A DNA stretch of 64,000 nt from Adineta vaga. Taxonomy: Eukaryota > Animalia > Rotifera. A program made the position numbers and the translations under genes. Below are positions 3,468-18,524 of the stretch, piece after piece (positions within the stretch are counted from its first letter, which is position 1; every line of letters begins with the position of its first letter). Location of the stretch: contig CP075494.1 of NCBI GenBank assembly GCA_021613535.1, forward strand, positions 9,610,001-9,674,000, written 5' to 3'. The notes under the pieces were generated by a model. It did not search any database and was not told where the DNA came from. It was given only the letters and a program-made list of their open reading frames with translations.

Positions 3468-6400
3468 TTATTTCGGTACAATTAGATCCAAATCTGCTTC
3501 TGTCAAAATTTTCGAATGCTTATGACGAAATGTTGGTTTAATCAATGATTTAGCGTCCATACGTACTGAAATATATGTAAGAAAAATTCATTCGAATATT
3601 CTATGAAATCATATTTGCTAACTGACCTGCATCAATATTTGAAAATTCTTTGGTTGCTAAATGTTGTGAAATACGTTTAGCAAACGATTTAAATAATTCC
3701 TAATAAGAGAAGTTCATTAATTTAAGTTTTGATTAAAATTAAGATAAATAGTTATACTTTAGATGAAAATCGATTAGCTTGATAAAATGGATTGAGTACA
3801 TCAACAACAACTTCTGATATAGTTTTGATATTCACAGGAAGCTTAATAAAATAAAATTTATCAGATCCCATAAGACAATAGAGATAACGATTTACAACTA
3901 TAGTACATATCTCTGAAATAAAAACTTACTTTGCTGTCACGAGCTTTTTTCGATGACGACGACGATGATGATTTTCGATTACTATTAGAAGCAGTAGTAG
4001 TGGATGAAGGATGATAGTCGTTTCGTCTTCATCGTTGATGACGTTGACAGTCGTTTGTTACTTGATTTTATGTCACCGGAAGAGTGACTTCGTTTTTTTG
4101 ATGATGTATGTTTGTGTCCTGTGCTTGAATTTAACGTTCCCGGTGGTAATGGTAAGGATTTCCGAGTCTTTGTTGGTGAAGTATCTTTCTTTTTAAGTGT
4201 TTTATTTTCGTTTGAATTATTCGTATTTAATAACGAACGAATGCGATCATCTAAACTTGGTTGTCGTTGAAGATTGCTATTTAATATTTGTTGTTCTTGA
4301 TCGTTGAGAAATGATGGTGATGAAGTTCCTTGTAATGATACAGGTTCTTCATTTGGTGATTGTATTGTTAGAGAACCAGATGGTTGTTCATTTAATTTTT
4401 GATGTAAAAAGTTTGACATCGATTCTAGACAAGTTTTTAATGTTCCACGAGCTTGTTTTGCTTTGACATCGAACGAATTTGTAGATAGAGGCGTAGAATT
4501 TCGACGATGACGATGGGTTGGTGATTGAGATTTAGCATTTGTTAAAGATTGATGAAGTACTTTAGATTTTTTTCGTTGACCATTGGGCTGTTTTAGTATT
4601 GAACCTTTTGGGGGAGCATCATTATTATTTGTGATATTTGGTTTCAATAGTGAAGTTTTATCTTGAGCTGGACTCATTGCTGATTTTGATGAAGATGAAG
4701 AGAATGAAGACGAAGACGAAGACGAAGACGAAGAGGATGATGAAGAAGAAGACGACGAGGAAGATGATGATCGTTTTCGAGTAGGTGATTTATTCTCGAT
4801 ATTTATAGGTGATAACGATGGTTGATTTGAATTATCTTGTTGTACTTCTTGTGGTTCGTTATCCGTATGTCCATTTGATTTAAGAATTTTTGTTTCGGGT
4901 TCAATAATTGTTTCAGTTTCTGAAAGCTTACGTTTCGTAGATGTAGGTGAAGATGTCAATTCAGTGACAGAATTTGTTGGCATCGAATCGACTATATACA
5001 AACTGGCATTGTTCTTGGTTGCTTTTGTAATTTCATTACACTAAAAAGTATGAATTATTTTGGAATGTAAAACAAACAACCGGAATTCTTTACTTTAGAC
5101 ATATATTTCATCTTATACATTGGTTCACTTTTCGTCGCAAGAAATACTTGATGTTCAAGCCAAACAGCTTTGTCCAAACATGTTTCTTCACTAAAGCATG
5201 AAAAAAGATATTATTTTGTCGATTTCTCTTTAATAAATTACTGTGCAAGACGTTGTATTTCATCATTGATAAAGTACTTTTCAATATTTTCAATTAATGC
5301 TTCTTTCAATTTTCGACAAACATGTTCACGAAGTTGAATAGTAACATTAGGCATTTTTCGATTATTTGGATCGATCAATGGACAATTAGCACTTGCTGTT
5401 GTCCATGTTTTTGATTTATTTTCTATTGCCTGAAAAATAGATTTTGTATTTTATTTAGACAGATACAACTCGTTTGATATTCTATTTTTTGAATTTTTAA
5501 TTACCGCTGCACGTCGTTTAAGTTCCTCTTGAACAAGTTTCGTGGCCATTCTTGCTGTTTCAGCGTCATTATCATCATCACGACGATAATTATCATCTGT
5601 ATTTCGATATTCACGTTCATCACGTCGATTAGCAACTCGACCACCTTCATACTGTTCTTCACTGCCTTCATTACGAAACATAATACGATTTGTTGAACGT
5701 CGATTGCTCGTATCATCGACTTTCTTTTTCTAAATAATCAGTGTACACATTCAATTTATCTTTCTTTCATCAATCAATTAAATTTACTTTTAAATTCTGT
5801 AAATTAGCTGAAACCAATTCACGTTGAGTACATACATCGCACATGGTTTCACATGGTTTCATCAACATATCACCAAAATAATTACAGATAACCAAATGTC
5901 GACATCTATACAAACAAACAATGAGAATCTTTTTCGTTATTTCTTTTTAAATGATAACATACTTAGCTTCTTCGCAATACTGAACAAGAGCATTAAAACC
6001 ATTTAGCATTGATGTTTTCTGTTCATCAGAAATTTTCTAAAAATATCAAATGAATCAAATGAACATGATTTAAAATGCTCTCTTACTTTTTCGTTTATTT
6101 CTTCATTAATAAGAAATAATTGTGTATCTCGTTCACGTGCTGAATAATACATTCGACAATTAGATCGATTTCCATCACGTCCAGCTCGACCAGATTCTTG
6201 ATAATAACCCGAAATCGATTTCGCCAAATCCCAATGAACAACAAATCTAATGATAATATTATTAATTTATATTTGAATAACATACTCTTTCGATTTCTTA
6301 CCTCACATCACCTTTATCAATACCCATACCAAAACTAATCGTAGCACAAATAATACTTGTTAAACCATCCATCCATTCTGCTTGAATTTGTGTTCGTTTT

Positions 6401-7624
6401 TCACTCGTTAAACCAGCATGATATGCTTTAACTGTACCAAATTTTTTTGTTTGAGTCAATTTATCAGCTAAATCGGAACATGAATTACGTGTACGACAAT
6501 AAATTATACCACTGATCGATTGTATCTATTGATAAAAGTAACATACAACAAGTTCGAAATATCATCAAATAAAGATATCTATCTTTACATCTGATGACGT
6601 CTTTGTTTCGTTAATAAATTCACATAGATTGACGAACGGATCATCGAATAAATCTTTGAATTGAACATCATAGAAAAGATTTGGACGAAACACTGATGAT
6701 TTAAATTCTAGCACTGGTTGTTTTAAATGTAAGGAACTAGAATTAAATAAGAAAAACAAAACTTGAAAAATTATCAATAGAGATGAATAACTCTAGAAAT
6801 ATACCTGTAGATATCTTCGATAACTTGTTGAGATGCTGTTGCTGTTACAGCAATACATGGAACATTACTTAGTTCATCATGTAATGTACCTAATTTTAAA
6901 TAATCAGGTCGGAAGTCATGACCCCATTGACTAACACAATGAGCTGTAAACACGAAAAAAGCAAATATTTGTTGCTTACAAACCAATGAAGTCTACCTTC
7001 ATCAATAATGAGATAATTCACTAGTTGACGTTGATGAACTTTTTTGATAATGGAAAGAAAACCTTGAAGAAAATAATAAAGGTGGTAAGAAAAAAAGCAG
7101 CTTATTCTAAAAAGAATCTCTTGTTACTTTGCGTCGCTGCAAGTTCTGGTGTTATATACAATAATCGCGTAGTTGGTTGTCGTTGCATCAGATCTCCTAG
7201 TACGATCTTTTTTTCTTGTGGACTCAAGGTTGAATTTAAAGTTCGAGCAACAATTTGCTTCTCATTTAATGCATTGACTTGATCTTGAATTAATGCTAAT
7301 AATGGAGATATAACCAATGAAAGACCATCTTCTTTATATACCGCAGGAAATTGATAGCATAATGATCTATGATAATTGTATGAATGAATAATGTTTAGTT
7401 TTCAATAAAATACGATACATACTTTCCAGCACCGGTTGGAAACGAAATGAAAACATCACTTTTCCCTAGAAATTAATAAATTAAATAAATGCTCTTATTT
7501 TTCTAAAGATACAAATAAACAAACCATGAATTATTGATAGAATGGCTTTTTCCTGGATATCAGATCGAAATTTTTCGAAACCAAATTTTTTTAAACATTG
7601 TTTCACTTTAATTTCTGTCGTCAT
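3468..7624 (-). CDS. RECQL5: RecQ5 helicase (helicase core, Zn-binding region, KIX-like domain, Ser-rich linker, C-terminal SRI domain); apparent +1 frameshift near 4010
   Basis: The spliced exons give [89 protein letters not shown] and CRH..C..C..CDVC. The KIX-like segment is [16 protein letters not shown]. The SRI-like end [32 protein letters not shown] is diagnostic for RecQ5. Confidence 0.92.
4688..4771 (-). repeat. Coding poly-serine tract (TCN trinucleotide repeat) in the RECQL5 linker
   Basis: A GAA/GAC/GAT-rich run on the + strand encodes about 28 nearly uninterrupted Ser residues on the - strand. Confidence 0.85.
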
Positions 7625-8682
7625 TGAAAATTCATCTTACGTTCTGTATTGATCTATAATAGATAAATAAAAACAAAATCGATAAGAGATATCGACTTGA
7701 TCAAGTATGAAGGTCAAATCAGGTGATTTCATACTAATCTACTGTCTGATGTAATAGCAAGGGATTGAATAGAAAAGTAAATGTTAAAGAATAGAACACT
7801 TTATATGCATCAATATATGGAAGACTTTCTATTTGACGACGTAACAGATTTTGTTTTTGTTAGTTTTAATTTAAATCTGAACGGTCATGAACTAAATCGA
7901 ATCAGATAATAATTCACAAAAGCAATAGCACCATCTATATAATAGAGATGAATCACGCACACGCACGTACGATGTAATTACGTGTCTGATTGGTTATTAA
8001 CATATCCGAAAGGTGGCATACAATATCATTAACATTTTAATTAATGATATTCAATAACAAATATTTGCTAGTTGATTTATACTCCAACTTATAACTATTG
8101 AACAAATGAGAAACAATTAAAGATCAATTAATTCAAAATTTCATTGATGTATTGAATAACAATCAGATTTTCATATCTATCACCATATGATTTCGGTATA
8201 AAATATGGGCAAAGCATATCCTGTCCCACAGATTTTTTCGTAAATATAGAATCTATTTAACATTCATATAGTTATCTGTATGCAATTCTTTACATAGCAT
8301 ACGTTATATTGAGTTCTTCAAATACAATCATATGACGACACCTTTCTTTTTCGTTTTCACAAGCGAAAGACTAAATTAACAAATCATCTACGTATTCTTC
8401 TATTCATCTCATGATTTATTTGCATAAATAATTACTACATTGTAATCCTAATAGAATGCAAATAAAATAGAGTCATTTTTCCATTGATTGCATCTGCCAA
8501 TCATGTAACCAATAAGAATCTTTTTCTTCCATAGATGTGACTCATCATCGGATGAGGTCATAGGATGTGACTTGATCAAATGCATCCAAGAAGCGTAAAT
8601 TGAGTTACACGTTTGTTTACGTGCTCAGAAAAAGACATGACAAGACTGATATAATTTTTCTGTTTATTACAAAATATTTCCT

Positions 8683-11600
8683 ATGTCAGCAGAATCAATA
8701 TTATTTTCAACAACTCGAGATAAAATGGTTCATAGTGATACTAATGAACAAGAATTAATTTCTTCAACAATTAGTGAAGATAGTCATACACCATTATCGG
8801 AAACAGTCACAACATTAGCCAGCAATGTTTATAAAGAATTAGAACGGATCATAAAGAATTTTGGTGAAAATAGTGTGAAAGATTTAATGCCCGTTATGAT
8901 TTCAACATTGGGTAACAGATCGATGTACTTTCTTTAATGTAGAAGAAAACCTTCTTTTTTTTGTCTCTCCTCAGAATCATTGGATAATGCTTTGCATGAA
9001 CGTGAAATTAATAAACTCGAAATGGAATCAATCAAAGAACAAAATGAACAATTATTTCAACAATATGAACGAGAAAAAAGTTTCCATAAAGAATATCAAC
9101 AAGTAATTCTCTTGAGAATAATCGCCTCTTTTTTGTCAAAGAAATTCTATACATTTGATTTATTTCATAGCGTTATTTACAAGTCGAAGATCATCTCGAA
9201 GAGATTAAACGAGAGAATGAAGAAAAATTACAAAGTCTTGAATCAATTGTAAAAATTTTTGAAATTAAAGCACGAAATGCATCAGATCATGTCGGAAGAT
9301 TAGAAGAGAAAGAAAATGATATGAAACAAGAATACAAACGTTTACATGATCGATATTGTGAAGTAAATTATATTCATATAAAGAAATTTGATCTCTTCTA
9401 TTCAATATTATGTATCTCTAGTTATTCAAAGCACATTGTGACTATATGGAACGAACAAAAATTTTATATGGAACAGATCGATTGGATCAATTACCATCTC
9501 ATTCTCCATCTCGGTTAGTTATTTAATAAACAAGCGAAAATATCTGTCGGGCATAGTTGATCGAATATTTTTCTTATTACTTACGAAGAAAATTAAATTC
9601 TTTTCTTTTTTTTAGTGGAAATCTTCAATTACCATCCACATCTCGTTCATCGAATGAAAAACAATCGAATATACCTGAGTCATCAACTGATGATGTCACA
9701 TCAAATCGTTCAGATGTATCTCTTACGTACGATTGAATTCATTCTTGTTAATCTTTTAAATAAATAATAGTTTTATTTCAGAACACAAGAACAATCTCAA
9801 CTTGGTACTGATTTTCAATCAGAAATACAAACTGCTGATGGTAAGCATACACAAACAGAATCAATGACAAGTAATGATGCAGCTGTCAATACAGGTAAAT
9901 TGTTTTATATTCAAAAGTCAAGAATCGAATGAATCAATCATCGATGTCTTTCCAGCTAAATTAGCAAAAATGACAATGATTGATGAGATATCTTTCAAAG
10001 AATTTGCATCAGGTTCGATAGATATTGTAAAATCAAATTCGATGTTGTATCTATATATATATATATATACGTGTATTGTAAAGTAATCTTGAGTAGAGAA
10101 GAGATTTCTATTGTTCTGTCTAGACGATGATAAGTCCTATCTTGAAAACTATAAACGTGGTAAGAAAAAACAACAACAACAAGTTTATCAGCTGATCCGA
10201 TCATCAATCTCATGCTTTGAATTCATATACCAACCTATCGCATGAGTTAACTAAAAAATAACAGGGATTTCTTTTTGTTATTTGATTGAACTAAACTGAG
10301 ATATTTGACATGTACCGCTCATGCTTTGCTTTTTGTATTTTGTATTTAATGTTTGTTTGTCTATGTTGCATGCTTTATAGAAATATTCTCCAAATTGCGA
10401 AGACTCAATCTTCTACCGAAACCGTTCGATGAACAACAATTCTGTGATATCGAAGATGAATTTGAACATTCAAATAATATGACAGGTGCTGGGAAGTAGA
10501 TTTAACTTCTTTTTTTTTCTAAAACATGTTTTTATAAAACAAGGATGAATTCTAATAATTTCATTGATTCTCTAATTAGATCCAACAGTAAGTGATGATG
10601 ATGATATATCCATTGATGATACGTATGTTGAAAAGATTTATTTCGAAAGAAATGTATGATGTATATTTTGTGATCTATAGGAAAAATTTGGAAGCATTCG
10701 ATAAAGAAACTCGAAATGATAATATTGATATATCAGATGTCGATGCATCAGCTGATTTATTCGGTAAGAAAATGAAACTTATTTATCTATGATTATTATT
10801 TTACTTCTTGTATAATATAGTTCGACAAAGTTTTTACGGTGAGATTTGATATTGTAATGTGGGATATAGGACTTTCTGTGCTCAACTCTAAATATTTTGT
10901 TTTGTTATGAAATATAAAATAACACTATTTCCTTGTGAATTTAGGTATGACAAAGGAAGTATCGAATTTAATTAAAGAAAATAATGAACTTTTGGAAACG
11001 AAGTATGTGTAAAGAGAATTCTCAAGAGAGAAAAGAAAACGTGTTCTATTCTACTTTTATAGAAATGCATTAAACGTATTGAAAGATGATCTACTCGTTA
11101 AAATTGAAGAATTATCAAAGTAAAAAAGAAAAGCAAAAGAAATGATTTTCTTTACAATAAAAGACAACTAATGATATGTTTTTAGTGAACAAGAAATCCT
11201 TCGTGAAGAAGTTGAATCATTACAAACAGTCAAAACTCGATTACAATCAAGGTAAATCTTCATATATTGAATTACAAATAGACAATCAACATTTCTTCTA
11301 TTCTTTTTTTTTCGTTAGAAATATCGAAGTTGAAGAAGAACTTCGGAAAATACGTGAAGAACTTGAAAAGAAAAAAGAAGAAGAGGTAAGAAGATTGAAA
11401 TCTAAACAACTTCATTGCATGTTCATATAATGTAGCCTACTAACATGTAAGTTACTTTTGCCAGATTTTGCTTGGCATAGTTGATTAATGCTCTATTGAT
11501 CTCTCTCTCTCTCTTTTGTTTTTGTTTGAATGATGCATGTTTGAATTAATTCAGGAAAATGTACCGACAGCAGATAGAAAGCGTTTTACTCGAATGGAAA

Positions 11601-14600
11601 TGCAACGTGTACTTCTTGAACGTAATCAGTACAAACAACGTTTATTTGAACTTGAAGAAGCTATTCATCGACAAGATGCATTACGTGCATCAAAACTTGA
11701 ACAATTACATGCATCATCAACAACAACTCATACAACTAATGATAGTCTTTTCGATCAAGTTCAAAGCAAACATCGACCAATGTTTCGAAAGATGTGAGTG
11801 AATATATCAATGTTGTCTTTTCTGTTCATATGAAATTGTGCGCATTCTATCTCTCTGTTCGGTACATTTGATATTTTATTTAGCTACCTAACTAACTTTA
11901 CTAATATCTCTGCATGATGTGATTAACCAACTGACCGAACAAATATATCATTGCATATTGTTTTCCTTATAGAAACCTTTGATGATAAGCAAAGGTACAC
12001 AAACGAGTACACATCATCATCATCAGCAGCAAACGACACCAGACAATACTTCATCTATGAATACAGTAGTTCCGAGTGAAACTACAGCTATTACGTCTAC
12101 ATCGAAATCTTTGTGGCGTATGTTCAGTGAAGACTGGCTACCCACAACCATTGTGCCCACAAATATTTTGGGCGTACCAGTTGCTGATATACAGAGTGAT
12201 TTGAGAGAGGGTACAACACAAATTTCTGAGTTGTAAGAATAAAAAATTTCAACGATTGATTTATTTCTCTTACATTTACAAGCATATGATTTATTTTCTT
12301 GTCTTTCTTGTTTAGTTTTTCGGATTTGTTTGGCAGCAACACCAAGGAACCTTCAACTAAACGTTCAATTCCTACGACTACAACAGCTACTCTAAAGCAT
12401 AGTTCAATAAATGATCAAATTGCACCTACATCTGTGACGAACGAAAATTTTTCATCAGAGCAAGCATTGCATGAAAAGTATATGACAAGATTATCGATGT
12501 TTATTGATCAATAATATTTCCTTACTTATTTAGTTTATCAATAGCAAACCAAACACCAACAAAACGTTCTGATCATGATGAAAATAATCGTTTCGAAGCG
12601 TATGGTTGGAGTATTTCATCAAAGAATCAATTTAAATCATCAGATCATGATGGTAAACTGCAAGTTAATGTTCCAATGCCGATTTATTGTCGACCAATAT
12701 TTAATATTAATGATATAACACAGGTAATACTAGGATTAAAATTCCATATCTCTCTAGTTCATATTCCATTTACAGATTTGGTGTGCTGTTGGCATTGATT
12801 TGAGTGGTTTAACATTAGAGTCTGAAGATACATCTGTTGATCAAATCAATAAACAATTGATTGAATCATATCATCAAATGGTTGATGAACAATGTTTAAA
12901 ATTATCTTCGATTATTTGGATAGCTGCTAAGTTAAATGATATGGCAATGATTACAGTTATTGATTCAAATAAACCAGAGAAAATCATTGATACATTCACA
13001 ATAGAAAATGCTATTATTTATACAATGGGTAGTGTACCAGGTAAAGTGAACGATTCTTTTTTTATGTCATTCGAAGAAAACTGTATTTTAGGTACATCAA
13101 GTACAGATTATACATCATTTGATGATTCGAAATTGATTGAAATAACATCAGCAGCTGGTAAGATGCAACTTAAAATCTCTTCAGAAGAGATATTTGAATA
13201 TTTTAGATGTCAAAATAACTCCTTGTACAGCAGCATCACTTGCTACTGGTGGAAGTAAGATTGTGTTCTCCTTTCCAGAATAATATTTCACTAAATGCTT
13301 ATAGATCGTTCCAATACTATCGAAATAGCAGAACAAGTTCTGCCTGATGCTTCTCAACCGAGTATGTTTTTTTTAATAATTCATGTATGTGATTGCGGAT
13401 GATATCTGACTATGGTTTTTTTTCTTTAGTTGGTGACGCAAATAAAACAAAGTATCCAACGGTTTGGTTAGGTTCAAGTGATGGATGGTAAGAAAAAAGA
13501 TAAAACATTGGAAATGTTTTTCTATTGATTGATCTAACCTTTAGGTTATACATTCATTCGAGTATCGGTGAACATCGAATTACAATTGGAAAAGTTTGGC
13601 TTCGTCATGCTATATATAGTATTGTGTAAGAATGAAATTCAAATCAGTTTTAATCGAAATACACTTTGTTCCATTTCGTTAGTCATACTCGTGGACGTGT
13701 TTTTGTTACATTAGCGAATGAGAAAATCATCGTATTTCATCGTGATTCAGGTAAAATGATTCCAAATCAATAGAATAATATCGTATTTGCGTTCGTATAT
13801 TAAGATGGCACATGGAGTTTGAATAATTTTCATTTAATTGTAACTGGTAAAACTCGAGAATCCGTTCGATGTGCTATTAATGTTGGAGATTCACTTTGGT
13901 GTGGAATCGCTAATCGTGTTTATGTTATTAATGTTCAAACATTAGAAATTCAAGTATATTTATTTCATTGGAACAGAAGAGAATTTCATCGTTCACATTT
14001 TTTTCCTAGAAACAATTTGAAGTACATTCTCGTCCAGAACATTCTGTTCAACATATGACTTGGTCGGGTGATGGAGTTTGGTTATCTATTCGTTTATCTA
14101 GTACTTTACAATTATATCATGCACATACATATCAACATTTACAAGATGTTGATATACAACCATATGTAGAAAAAATGATTAGTTAGTTTTTCATTGTTTC
14201 TTCATGAATAAAATATGTTTTCTTCAATTCTAGTTACGGAGAAAACAGGTCCATATTTTGTTCATATTAGTGCCTTAAATATTGCATGTCGTCGATTATG
14301 GATTGGTACTGGTAATGGTATTATTATATCAGTTCCCTTAGTAGACAGTAAGTCATATTTTCAATGAGAAATTTTTGTGGTCGGCATTGATCAAATAATA
14401 CATTATTTTCAGGTATTATATCTTCATCTAATTCAACATCGACAAAACCTGGTTCGGTTGTTCGTGTAAATGATCAAACAACATCTTCAAACTATATTCC
14501 ATATTGTAGCATGAACAATGCTCAATTATCTTTCCATGGTTATCGAGATGCAGTAAAATTTTTTGTTGCTGTACCTGGACAAACACCCTCGAAATCCTTG

Positions 14601-14786
14601 GTTCAGGATGAAACAATTTCAGAAACTCTAACAACTATTTCATCTTCATCACCCTTTGGTGATATACTTGTTGTCAGTGGTGGAGATGGATACATTGACT
14701 TTCGTCAAGGCAACACGACAGTAATCGCAGAGAAAACGAATAGAAATGTATCGTATCTTATTGTATGGCATTTGGGTTCAGTTTAA
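8683..14786 (+). CDS. MAPK8IP3: JNK-interacting protein 3/4 (UNC-16/Sunday driver/SPAG9 family), many exons with candidate alternative exons
   Basis: RH1: [33 protein letters not shown]. Leucine zipper II: [26 protein letters not shown]2: [29 protein letters not shown]. The WD40-like C-terminus includes [48 protein letters not shown] and [10 protein letters not shown]. The constitutive junctions are all frame-consistent. Confidence 0.93.
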
Positions 14787-15270
14787 TGATCAAAGACAGA
14801 TTTCTCACCTAGTCAATCTGACTGATACATTTACGTTGTTTACAGTGATGTATTTTTAAGCACGATTAATACTTTATACATATAATTGTTCGCTTCTCTT
14901 TATCTTATTATCTATTCTAGTTGTTTTCTTATATCTCTAGTTATTTATCATGTCTATGCGAAAACAAATCTATTTATTGTTTTGGATATTTAGATATGTC
15001 TGTTCACGTTTTGTGATGGGATAAATAAACTTTCTTTTAAAATTCAATAGATCAATCCAATATAAAATCATTTGATATTTGAGGTTGTAAAACATTATTG
15101 CTTATCTATCTAAAATTTATGTTGAGTTTGATATTTACTGAATGCATGAGTCATATAATGAAAGAACAAAGAGCAACATACTTTGTTCTTATCATCTGTA
15201 TCATTTTACATATGAAAGTAATATTCAACGTTAGTCTTTAAATCCATTGATTGATTTTCTAATTCTAAGT

Positions 15271-16101
15271 ATGAATAATAGTTCAAATTATATTCAATTT
15301 CAAGATCCAAACGAACTTCGTCAAGCTATTCGTTCGGGTGAATTTAAAGCAACTACCAGTAGTCAATGTCCACAATATATTCAAGCGAATATGGTGATAC
15401 TACCGAAATCTGTTTCGAATAAATTCCTTGAATTTTGTCGATCAAATCCACGAGCTTGTCCTCTTCTTGAAATGTTACCAGCTGGTTCGTATAAACCGAC
15501 TAAATTAGCTAAAACTGATGCGGATATACGGACAGATTTACCAAAATATCGTATTTTTGAAAATGGGCAATTGATCAAAGAAGTTACCGATATACAAGAA
15601 TATTGGAATGATGAGATGGTTACATTTCTTCTCGGTTGTTCATTTTCATTTGAAAATGCTTTACAACAGAATGGTATTCGTATAAAAAATATTGATGAAA
15701 AGAAAAATGTATCAATGTATAAATGTTCAAAAATTCAATGTCCAGGTCCACTCGAACATGTGACATTAATTGTTTCTATGAGACCCATTCGTAATGATCA
15801 AGTTGAATTAGCTAAGAAAATAACTGGAGAATCACATTTTCAAAAAACACATGGTGAACCTTTATATTGTGGTTATAATTATGTTGAAGAATTAGGTGTA
15901 AACAAAGATTTAAATCAAGTTGATTTTGGTGATTCAGTAACAGTCGATCAACAAACGGAAACACCTTGTTTTTGGTACTGTGGTGTTACAGGAATTATGG
16001 CTGCAATTGAAATTAGTCAAATGGAGAAAGGTTTCTGTATAACACATTCTCCGGGATATATGTTTGTATCAGATATTAAAGAAGATGAAGACATTTTATG
16101 A
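15271..16101 (+). CDS. Stand-alone DUF1445/UPF0317 putative hydro-lyase (D-glutamate cyclase-like, YcsI-like), intronless, 276 aa
   Basis: Motifs include QANMVILP, FCRSNPRACPLL, DIRTDLPKYRIFENG, FLLGCSFSFENAL, NVSMY, VSMRP, HGEP, FWYCGVT and ITHSPGYMFVSD. The first ATG is at 15271; the ORF track starts upstream at a TTG. Confidence 0.9.
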   Translation: MNNSSNYIQFQDPNELRQAIRSGEFKATTSSQCPQYIQANMVILPKSVSNKFLEFCRSNPRACPLLEMLPAGSYKPTKLAKTDADIRTDLPKYRIFENGQLIKEVTDIQEYWNDEMVTFLLGCSFSFENALQQNGIRIKNIDEKKNVSMYKCSKIQCPGPLEHVTLIVSMRPIRNDQVELAKKITGESHFQKTHGEPLYCGYNYVEELGVNKDLNQVDFGDSVTVDQQTETPCFWYCGVTGIMAAIEISQMEKGFCITHSPGYMFVSDIKEDEDIL

Positions 16102-16555: not shown

Positions 16556-17534
16556 AATGTAGAGATTGTCAGTGTAAATCTATATTGATCGTAAACGAAC
16601 TTTTTTCTACCGAAATTAGCAAGAAAAATACTTTTTTAAACAATATTCTGAAAACTTCTTTGGTTAGAAGAATAAAACTTCTTATTTCTGTAAACAATAG
16701 CGAATCATTTTAACGTTCAAAACTTTGTTGAGAAGTAAATTCACTTCGTATAATTACATTTGATTGATGTCAATATCATGAATCCCTGATTTGTAACGAT
16801 ATTTAGATTTAGATTTTTATGAACTAAATGAAAAAGAACGAGGTAATTATGAAAATCGTGATTATTATAAGTTTTCCTACATGAATCATTTATTCAGAGT
16901 TACTCGCTTCAACGAACAATTATAAGATTAATTCTAATTTTAAAATCGAACGAAGATAAAAATATAATTCATTATTTTCAATTCCAATATCGAATCTATA
17001 AATCTGTGGCAACTACTATTAATATAGAAATACTGAAGATCCTTTGTACAACACAATACCAAGATGTCTTCGTATATATTCAACACTTTGACAATACTTG
17101 TCTATAGTTGTTATCAACAATCTATCTTTTCATGAATAATTTATGATTGACAAGTTTATATTGTGGAACTGACAAAGATGTTTTTTGTCATATGCGTTTT
17201 AATTCATATAGTGATATTGATAAACAAAATTACGAATGAAAGCAAAAGCAGAAGCGTATTTTGAGTGTATTATTTCATTATTGTGCCTTGATTTAGTTTC
17301 TAACTATTTTATTTCTTAGAATATAGAATATTAATAGACAGGTGTCGGCAGACATCAAAGAATAAATTCTAAAAGAATTTTTGAAAGTTTTGTTTCATCA
17401 TGTAAACTGAATAATTAAAAAATACGTGATAAAAAGAAGAAACTACAGTAATCTTCTACTATATTCTCATTTCTTCGATTTCTTTGAACGTGTATTGTCG
17501 AAAGGATTTCTGAAATTTGTTTTTCAAATAAACG

Positions 17535-18524
17535 ATGGCTATCATGATGTCAAATGAAACACGTACCAATGCAACAGTGTCTGATGAATCGTCATCATCT
17601 TCAAGTATAGGAATAATTTTATCACCAAGAACTCGTTTCTGGATTTTTCTTGCTTTTGAAATTCCATCAGTTTTCTGTTCTCTTTTTCTGCTCTACAATC
17701 TTATCTTTGATCGAATACAAAGAAAAGCACTCAATAATCATATCATCGTCGTTATTCTCATTTTGACTTTTCTTATGCTCATTATTGATTTTCCAAATTA
17801 TCTTACTGTTCTGTATTCTGGCTCTGTTTTGATACAGTCACCGGTGAACTGTTCTTTTTGGTTATTTGTTGACATTGCTGGCTTCTATGGAATTGGTATA
17901 TTAATGGCATGGGCATCGATTGAAAGACATATTTTAGTTTTTCATAATCGATGGCTTCATAATCGAAAGAATCGTTTTTTACTTCATTATCTACCCATTG
18001 GTTTAATCATTTTGTATCTTTGTATATTCTATACTATCATTATATTCTTTGCAGCATGTGAAAATGTATTTGATTATACACAATTTGTTTGTTCAGGTGC
18101 ATGTGTTTATCAATTTGAAGCTATTGCCATGACGGATGGATTTCTTAATGGTGTTATTCCATGTTTTTTAATCACAATATTCAATACTTTATTACTCATT
18201 CGTGTAATTAAACAAAAACAACGTCTTCGACAAAATATAGATTGGCGTAAATATCGGAGAATGATTATACAAATGATATCATGTACAGGACTTTTTCTAC
18301 TATTCGATTTGCCTTTAATGGGTCTTTATATCGCTCAAGCATTTGATGTACCCTACGGTGCAACGGGTCAGTTTGAAATGTTTGTGTACTTTCTTTCGTA
18401 TTTTATTATTCTTTGGATGCCTTTCGTATGTCTTGGAACATCACCAGAAATACTGATGAAATTGAAGAAAATTATCAGAACACAACGTATCAATAACTCT
18501 ATTACTATACAACGCACATTATAG
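17535..18524 (+). CDS. Intronless class A (rhodopsin-like) orphan GPCR, 329 aa
   Basis: It has seven hydrophobic segments, N-terminal NxT glycosylation sites, a TM3 Cys, ASIERHILVF (DRY-equivalent ERH), a TM5 Pro (VIPC), TM6 DLP and TM7 MPFV. Confidence 0.88.
   Translation: MAIMMSNETRTNATVSDESSSSSSIGIILSPRTRFWIFLAFEIPSVFCSLFLLYNLIFDRIQRKALNNHIIVVILILTFLMLIIDFPNYLTVLYSGSVLIQSPVNCSFWLFVDIAGFYGIGILMAWASIERHILVFHNRWLHNRKNRFLLHYLPIGLIILYLCIFYTIIIFFAACENVFDYTQFVCSGACVYQFEAIAMTDGFLNGVIPCFLITIFNTLLLIRVIKQKQRLRQNIDWRKYRRMIIQMISCTGLFLLFDLPLMGLYIAQAFDVPYGATGQFEMFVYFLSYFIILWMPFVCLGTSPEILMKLKKIIRTQRINNSITIQRTL

Follow-up and report, generated by a model that had tools for sequence, protein, structure and literature searches.

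An either/or pair of unrelated exons exchanges the RH2 domain of a bdelloid JIP3/4 motor adaptor next to a conserved exon-intron stem

Introduction

In the motor adaptors JIP3, JIP4 and Sunday driver (Syd), the RH1 domain, leucine zipper II, the RH2 domain and the WD40 domain follow one another in that order, with an FFxxL-like motif after RH2, according to passages of PMC7615804 and PMC12772503. Here we describe a JIP3/4 gene of the bdelloid rotifer Adineta vaga which has the same layout and in which the exon coding for RH2 can be exchanged for an unrelated one. The gene occupies positions 8686-14790, on the plus strand, of a 64,000-nucleotide stretch of contig CP075494.1 (9,610,001 to 9,674,000, assembly GCA_021613535.1), hereafter the window, to which the coordinates below refer. 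As those passages have it, human JIP3 has an FFxxL-bearing helix at 570-582 whose binding to RH1 prevents the activation of dynein, its fragments 1-560 and 1-185 show activity and its leucine zipper II binds Arf6 (PMC7615804), and in fly Syd the binding of Rab2 requires helix 1 of RH2 and kinesin light chain is bound by leucine zipper II (PMC12772503). Sections of a further report present syd, SPAG9 and MAPK8IP3 as a hotspot of recurrent alternative splicing beside leucine zipper II, with neural 18-base microexons (bioRxiv 10.64898/2026.09.05.749416).

Exclusive exon choice has been described elsewhere. Exons 7a and 7b of ATE1 are governed by competing R1R3 and R3R4 pairings, an intronic element hindering 3′ splice sites, in passages of PMC7797038. 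The model outlined in parts of PMC6071210 derives such structures from exon duplication, and non-homologous pairs are noted there to exist. In C. elegans, sections of PMC4165533 count 7 non-homologous clusters among 29, egl-15 5A/5B, unc-32 4a-4c and tom-1 14a/14b being examples; the name unc-16 is absent from the main text of that paper. Non-homologous exclusive exons and structure-controlled ones are already known, whereas an RH2 swap in JIP3/4 was not found described: neither an RH2-swapping isoform nor a bdelloid case turned up in the literature searched, outside which lay most subscription journals, supplements and figures.

Results

Two unrelated exons between common flanks

The public annotation splits the JIP3/4 gene in two, an apparent split produced by protein model P0001, which begins at codon 4 of exon B; transcript joints show a single gene. 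Pfam searches with P0001 and the relatives P0002, P0008, P0012 and P0015 return RH1, JIP leucine zipper II, RH2 and WD40_2, the domain order of JIP3 and JIP4. Joints and translation define a common upstream exon U (11319..11385), which codes for the end of leucine zipper II and ends in phase 0, and a common downstream exon D (12316..12477), which starts in phase 2. Between them, likewise on the plus strand, lie exon A (11555..11793, 239 bases, donor GTGAGT) and exon B (11973..12232, 260 bases, donor GTAAGA), both 2 mod 3 in length and running from phase 0 to phase 2. A preliminary description made from the sequence alone had put A and B forward as mutually exclusive exons, and their coordinates, lengths, phases, acceptors and donors are as it gave them. 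Its reading-frame argument was borne out as well: through the next two exons the frame is open with A alone and with B alone, inclusion of both brings a stop at 11980-11982 and skipping of both a stop at 12358-12360.

That exon A encodes the Rab-binding RH2 domain, also proposed earlier, agrees with its match to residues 521-566 of human JIP3 (PDB 8pr2, E-value 1.9e-11) and with a weak match to Pfam RILP (E-value 2e-4, below the curated cut-off). Exon B has 86 codons, 31% of them for Ser or Thr, and its 3′ half is conserved; over 97% of its length it is identical to the start of an A. vaga protein model. It has no match in Pfam; the ESM Atlas gave no usable match and Rfam a single, chance-level one. 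AlphaFold gives exon B no confident fold (mean predicted local distance difference test, pLDDT, 52; predicted template modelling score 0.13), a negative that is weak because the seven-row alignment is shallow. As expected of a non-homologous pair, A and B gave no BLASTP alignment, a profile comparison probability of 0.6% over nine columns and nothing beyond low-complexity DNA matches, so an origin by exon duplication was rejected for lack of detectable homology. Nine residues in the middle of B do resemble the end of A plus D, though not significantly. The idea that exon A codes in two frames was considered too and rejected, its +1 frame being open in the window and interrupted by one or two stops in all other loci listed.

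Transcript evidence for the choice

Eight of 19 listed runs were examined, all as assembled contigs, which show presence and neither absence nor level. Counts are given over the five transcript-like runs covering the window copy of the gene, X1-X4 from one study and X12 from a second. Contigs of X10 pass through introns without GT-AG joints and X10 behaves as DNA; it also shows, in pieces, a second, diverged gene copy with both A and B. X5 holds just a U-to-A joint of that second copy and X6 almost nothing, and neither was counted for the window copy.

Splicing of U directly to B (11385>11973), of B to D (12232>12316) and of A to D (11793>12316) was seen in all five runs. The direct joint from U to A (11385>11555) was found in one of the five (X12), and for the second gene copy in X12 and X5; small-bubble removal during assembly may hide it. 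Three of the four junctions foreseen in the preliminary description are therefore present throughout, while the fourth was recovered once. The joints A to B (11793>11973), A to 11990, U to D and microexon (see below) to D occurred in none of the five runs, in contigs that drop rare forms. Each exon thus stands alone between the same flanks, and B, being joined from U without A in an open and observed U-B-D message, does not behave as a poison exon. We are highly confident that A and B form a real, conserved and transcript-supported either/or pair.

Conservation and loss of exon B

Protein searches yielded exon B homologues in 15 of 55 candidates and, by profile, in 25 of 7,989 proteins scored; all those named belong to Adineta, Rotaria or Didymodactylos, which are all Bdelloidea. 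Outside the bdelloids exon B was not found in these protein searches, which would overlook any exon of another rotifer that lacks annotation. When 1.84 billion representatives were searched with a profile, nine matches resulted, seven exon-B-like and two chance-looking; P0061 and P0062 look like chance motif matches and were not counted as homologues. In a metagenome scan with exon A we obtained 19 loci (L001-L019): 12 carry exon B (L007 in part), four lack it, two end inside exon A and one is a weak partial match. L019, whose match is limited to residues 45-72, was not counted.

Exon B is 2 mod 3, free of stops and bounded by a conserved acceptor and donor in the nine rows listed and in L015, so the frame conservation anticipated for it holds in other bdelloids; the early stop after joint inclusion of A and B is present in all nine rows listed. 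The four B-less loci have an A-to-D intron of 52-63 bases and, in a 14-row tree built without L012-L014 and L017-L019, fall within the second-copy clade (100/98), a placement compatible with one loss or with two. The two gene copies presumably fit the ancient genome doubling of bdelloids. In a comparison made without the control blocks U0, E and F, most blocks of A and B show synonymous change in 10-17% of their codons, with 46% for the last 12 codons of A; the corresponding figures are 25-32% for two upstream exons, 18% for U and 56% where D begins; the lower values in A and B would be mild support only, since U is also low. Some Rotaria second-copy models (P0043, P0044 and P0047-P0049) carry an extra Pfam domain, PF17822, in proteins of 1,450-1,530 residues and are possibly gene-model fusions.

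A stem joining exon A to the A-B intron

The A-B intron carries an antisense copy of the first 30 bases of exon A. The resulting helix, Stem I, has its 5′ arm at the start of exon A (11557..11584), as indicated by complementarity and by folds, and its 3′ arm in the intron (11840..11869, plus strand), with an invariant core at 11859-11869. Bases 3-13 of exon A have their reverse complement in this intronic 11-mer, which stays invariant while the length and sequence of the intron vary. A duplex of -30 to -36 kcal/mol, a strength that none of 300 shuffles reached, forms in all 13 B-bearing rows (the window plus 12 loci, 10 distinct sequences). In the B-less loci pairing was no better than in shuffles (z -1.1 to +0.2, four of four loci given 160 downstream bases). 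Stem I is the longest conserved helix from U to D, with 11 bp in eight of eight aligned sequences. Sixteen of its 28 pairs are invariant and two have changes on both sides, and 93% of its cells are paired compared with 34-52% when the arms are slid. Among nine exons of the gene tested against their own downstream sequence only A pairs in this way, the next best having z -2.5. The stem is present in both the minimum-energy and the centroid fold of the window, where six pairs that were sampled have probabilities of 0.49-1.0, and in nine other sequences it extends to the G of the acceptor. Conserved pairing at or over the splice site of an alternative exon, the mark of docking/selector or ATE1-type systems, is thus found here. 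We consider it quite probable that Stem I is functional, and it likely masks the exon A acceptor.

A second stem, between the 5′ part of the A-B intron and the end of exon B, would cross the first. It is strong in L015 (-35.7 kcal/mol, 0 of 200 shuffles), where L015:2158-2181 and 2511-2534 form a 24-base inverted repeat from the start of the intron to the end of exon B that crosses Stem I. Its intronic half is visible in L007 and a 6-8-base remnant in several first-copy loci. A role for it in hiding B is supported only in L015.

A motif scan found TGCATG at 11416..11421, upstream of the microexon described below, and at 11534..11539, just before the exon A acceptor; GCATG is present in the U-A intron in 12 of 15 sequences. 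In the A-B intron, ACTAAC or ACTAAT is followed by TGCATG (11891..11916, 61-82 bases ahead of the B acceptor; all three on the plus strand). Every B-bearing locus has an ACTAAY-then-GCATG pair of this kind 54-82 bases upstream of the B acceptor, and the four B-less loci have none; the 64-kb window holds one other occurrence. We take TGCATG to be an RBFOX-type motif and ACTAAC/ACTAAT to be a branch-point or STAR-type motif. At 130-193 bases across loci, the A-B intron should be too long for simple steric exclusion, since this gene splices out introns that measure about 52-67 bases.

Unproductive entries to exon A

The region is no clean two-way switch. The proposed splice switch holds as far as the either/or joints go, and beside it the region gives unproductive or truncated outcomes by way of a microexon and of retained introns. 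Entry to exon A is often unproductive: in three of the five runs (X1, X2, X4) A is entered via an 11-base microexon (11436..11446, plus strand, flanked by AG and GTAAGT), and contigs of four runs (X2, X3, X4, X12) retain the U-A intron. The microexon joined to A shifts the frame and leads to a stop at 12393-12395; both kinds of form would end before FFxxL and WD40. A microexon of the same length in the same place exists in L001, L002 and L017, and frame-shifting candidates of 22 or 25 bases in L004, L005 and L018; the U-A intron of L006 and of L011 has no candidate. The microexon alone as a third in-frame choice is open on paper and was discarded, its joint being seen in none of the five runs.

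In the second gene copy (L007, L008, L009, L010, L015, L016) the intron before A holds a 21-base in-frame microexon candidate, at the place of the frame-shifting 11-, 22- or 25-base one of the first copy. It encodes a hydrophobic 7-mer (IF-acidic-hydrophobic-F), and models P0046 and P0050 have a similar insert.

What the exchange would do to the protein

FFxxL is split by the intron before D and is read across the B-to-D junction (12231..12328, plus strand), its first Phe codon being made of 12231-12232 plus 12316 and the rest of the motif lying at 12317-12328. All models that run from the end of exon B into D take this Phe from B; the A-to-D junction gives Leu in its place, or Ile in the window. 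When the complex of an RH1 dimer and the part of P0002 that spans the B-D junction was predicted, it scored 0.34 against 0.01 for the best control, with runs agreeing in at least 55% of contacts and a partner pLDDT of at least 45. Among solved pairs 51 of 78 attained the mark applied, and among mismatched pairs 2 of 108; passes at 0.60 or under were 5 of the 78 solved pairs and all 4 passing mismatches. Like complexes are already solved, so the prediction may be memory, and it lends weak support to the binding of FFxxL to RH1.

With the RH2 exon absent and the Phe of FFxxL supplied by B, form B is predicted to be Rab-blind but locked, that is, to lose the Rab site and keep the FFxxL lock, an outcome that we favour slightly. 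It retains RH1, both leucine zippers and WD40, and would still take Arf6 and kinesin light chain. The preliminary description spoke of a Rab-uncoupled adaptor; this much is predicted here as well, but uncoupled does not mean released, because the B junction keeps FFxxL and the zipper for Arf6 and kinesin light chain lies upstream.

Other features of the gene and its surroundings

Directly before leucine zipper II the window has an 18-base in-frame microexon (10821-10838), which loose contig ends include in X1, X2 and X4 and skip in X3. Rotaria models hold its six residues, and in size and side it is the same as the neural syd microexon. Further probable alternative exons lie between leucine zippers I and II (10144-10476; near 10140-10160 and 10380-10485). 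The introns that flank them are long, TGCATG occurs at 10367, and models of relatives include or skip these exons in varied combinations. Downstream of the JIP3/4 gene, on the plus strand, are two long intronless open frames, 15235-16101 and 17532-18524 (288 and 330 codons stop to stop); by eye, the latter resembles a seven-transmembrane receptor and the former a small enzyme. A gene that by eye is RecQ-like helicase (5238-7640, minus strand) stands head to head with the JIP3/4 gene.

Discussion

We propose, with a probability of roughly 0.65, that A and B are spliced one at a time, that the conserved stem likely masks the A acceptor, and that the form made with B would lack Rab binding and stay autoinhibited through FFxxL. 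As long as the stem stands, the acceptor of A would be masked and U would skip A and join B. If the splicing of the A donor to D came first, it would remove B along with the 3′ arm of the stem, free the acceptor and let U join A. The frequent retention of the U-A intron fits this order, since the only listed exit from A in X2-X4 and X12 is to D. Messages with premature stops are subject to nonsense-mediated decay, and double inclusion of A and B, through its stop, would be cleared in this way. RNA-binding proteins likely act through the ACTAAC/TGCATG elements to tilt the choice according to cell type.

Several observations weigh against this proposal. X1 shows read-through of the A-B intron together with entry to A via the microexon, at odds with a strict splicing order: the A acceptor region is usable with the 3′ arm still present, and A and B can share one unspliced molecule. 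The missing A-to-B joint does not prove exclusion at the splicing step, as rare forms are lost from contigs and A+B messages would be lost to decay; the direct U-to-A joint was found in only one of the five runs; and the RNA status of the runs was guessed by a tool, with the GT-AG joints that DNA-like X10 lacks as backing. Exon B has an in-frame internal acceptor conserved in nine of ten loci. In the window copy Stem I begins at exon base 3 and leaves the acceptor AG itself uncovered, its 11-bp core barely varies, and its covariation score, reached by 18 of 500 shuffles, is modest. The joint loss of stem and exon B is partly trivial, the four B-less loci having lost most of the intron, and by their place in the tree these loci would represent one or two loss events. 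The second stem, which might hide exon B, is strong in one of ten loci and does not exceed shuffles in the window.

Part of this pattern would also arise if A and B were independent cassettes whose exclusivity is only apparent, messages with both or neither being degraded for their stops, and if proteins bound to TGCATG and ACTAAC set inclusion with the stem secondary. Both exons are indeed 3n+2, 14 of the 19 C. elegans clusters that are not 3n rely at least partly on decay according to passages of PMC4165533, the motif pair before B is conserved as well as the stem, and the window has no partner stem hiding B. We regard this as unlikely: it leaves unexplained why the intron keeps an invariant 11-mer that pairs exactly with the start of exon A and why two pairs show compensatory change, and the stop-bearing microexon-A and retained-intron forms visible in the same contigs indicate that decay does not erase everything. 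Under a dosage switch, the majority of cells would have the RH2 form silenced or truncated through the microexon and retained introns; B would be the default product, and only certain cells or stages would make the RH2 form. This is possible, though we lean against it. The run counts agree with it (U to B in five of five, direct U to A in one, microexon plus A in three, retained U-A intron in four), as does the recurrence of the 11-base microexon or of frame-shifting candidates in six loci; but the missing direct joint may be an artefact of bubble-arm removal, contig depths cannot rank the forms, two loci have no microexon candidate and the second copy's 21-base one is in frame. Such a switch is compatible with the stem-based proposal rather than exclusive of it.

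The internal acceptor of exon B (AG at 11988..11989, plus strand) would allow A to be joined in frame, at 11990, to a B shorter by 17 bases, and B would then be a linker insert after RH2 in messages that often contain both exons. Several NCBI gene models use this AG (e.g., P0004-P0007, P0012, P0014, P0032 and P0033), which is widespread among the loci as noted above. We hold this to be very unlikely, given that 11793>11990 was seen in none of the five runs, that the AG belongs to a Ser codon and is lost in L007, and that gene models join A to B at three places (P0002, P0004, P0015), as predictors forced to fit both exons would. Hardly to be expected either, and at the lowest odds we assign, is that B also serves as an alternative first exon for a WD40-only protein starting at its fourth codon. 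Models P0001, P0003 and P0054 do start there, an X1 contig runs from 11825 into B, and second-copy contigs extend upstream of B in X1, X2 and X4. The preliminary description had named a first-exon role as an outcome that would speak against its own proposal; U is joined to B in every run, the acceptor is conserved, the ATG is not (it is absent in P0002, P0008 and L011), and the X1 graph branches at the exon A donor, which fits intron retention.

Returning to the proposal of a masked acceptor, we speculate, tentatively and at well below even odds, that one region may yield three states: Rab-gated with A, Rab-blind but locked with B, which would be a bdelloid invention that rebuilds FFxxL, and unlocked and truncated with the microexon or a retained intron. 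The last would be akin to the active 1-560 fragment of JIP3, as it would end before FFxxL and WD40. The choice would be made by a self-removing stem that orders splicing, and the crossing second stem in the other gene copy would make the switch bistable.

As in the ATE1 pair 7a/7b, an element in the intervening intron pairs at the 3′ splice site of the upstream exon and would hinder it; in the passages of PMC7797038, however, the two exons are copies of each other and a single element competes for the acceptor of each, whereas here the exons are unrelated, one arm is coding sequence and the window copy has no second partner. The C. elegans clusters resemble A and B in joining unrelated exons of different lengths, in keeping the downstream frame and in having 3n+2 exons backed by decay, and some are regulated by RBFOX and ASD-2 proteins; the corresponding passages of PMC4165533 contain no exon-intron stem, and the egl-15 intron has 14 bases compared with the 130-193 of the A-B intron. 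With respect to JIP3, JIP4 and Sunday driver, the literature searched yielded no natural form that lacks RH2 and still restores FFxxL with the help of a foreign exon. The neural syd, SPAG9 and MAPK8IP3 microexons, as far as that report's relevant sections go, add six residues, whereas the A/B switch exchanges a whole domain.

The ATE1 case and the model of PMC6071210, in the parts cited, rest on exon duplication, and here a stem would serve two unrelated exons. Since one arm of Stem I is coding sequence and the stem disappears when the exon is lost, the region offers a small minigene (<1 kb) for studies of order-of-splicing control. For the adaptor family, form B would be a construct of nature's own making in which the Rab site and the FFxxL lock come apart, and it has been preserved in different bdelloid families and in both copies of the gene. 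How cargo GTPases release the autoinhibition of JIP3/4 is left unsettled in the passages of PMC7615804 and PMC12772503, and form B makes that question directly testable.

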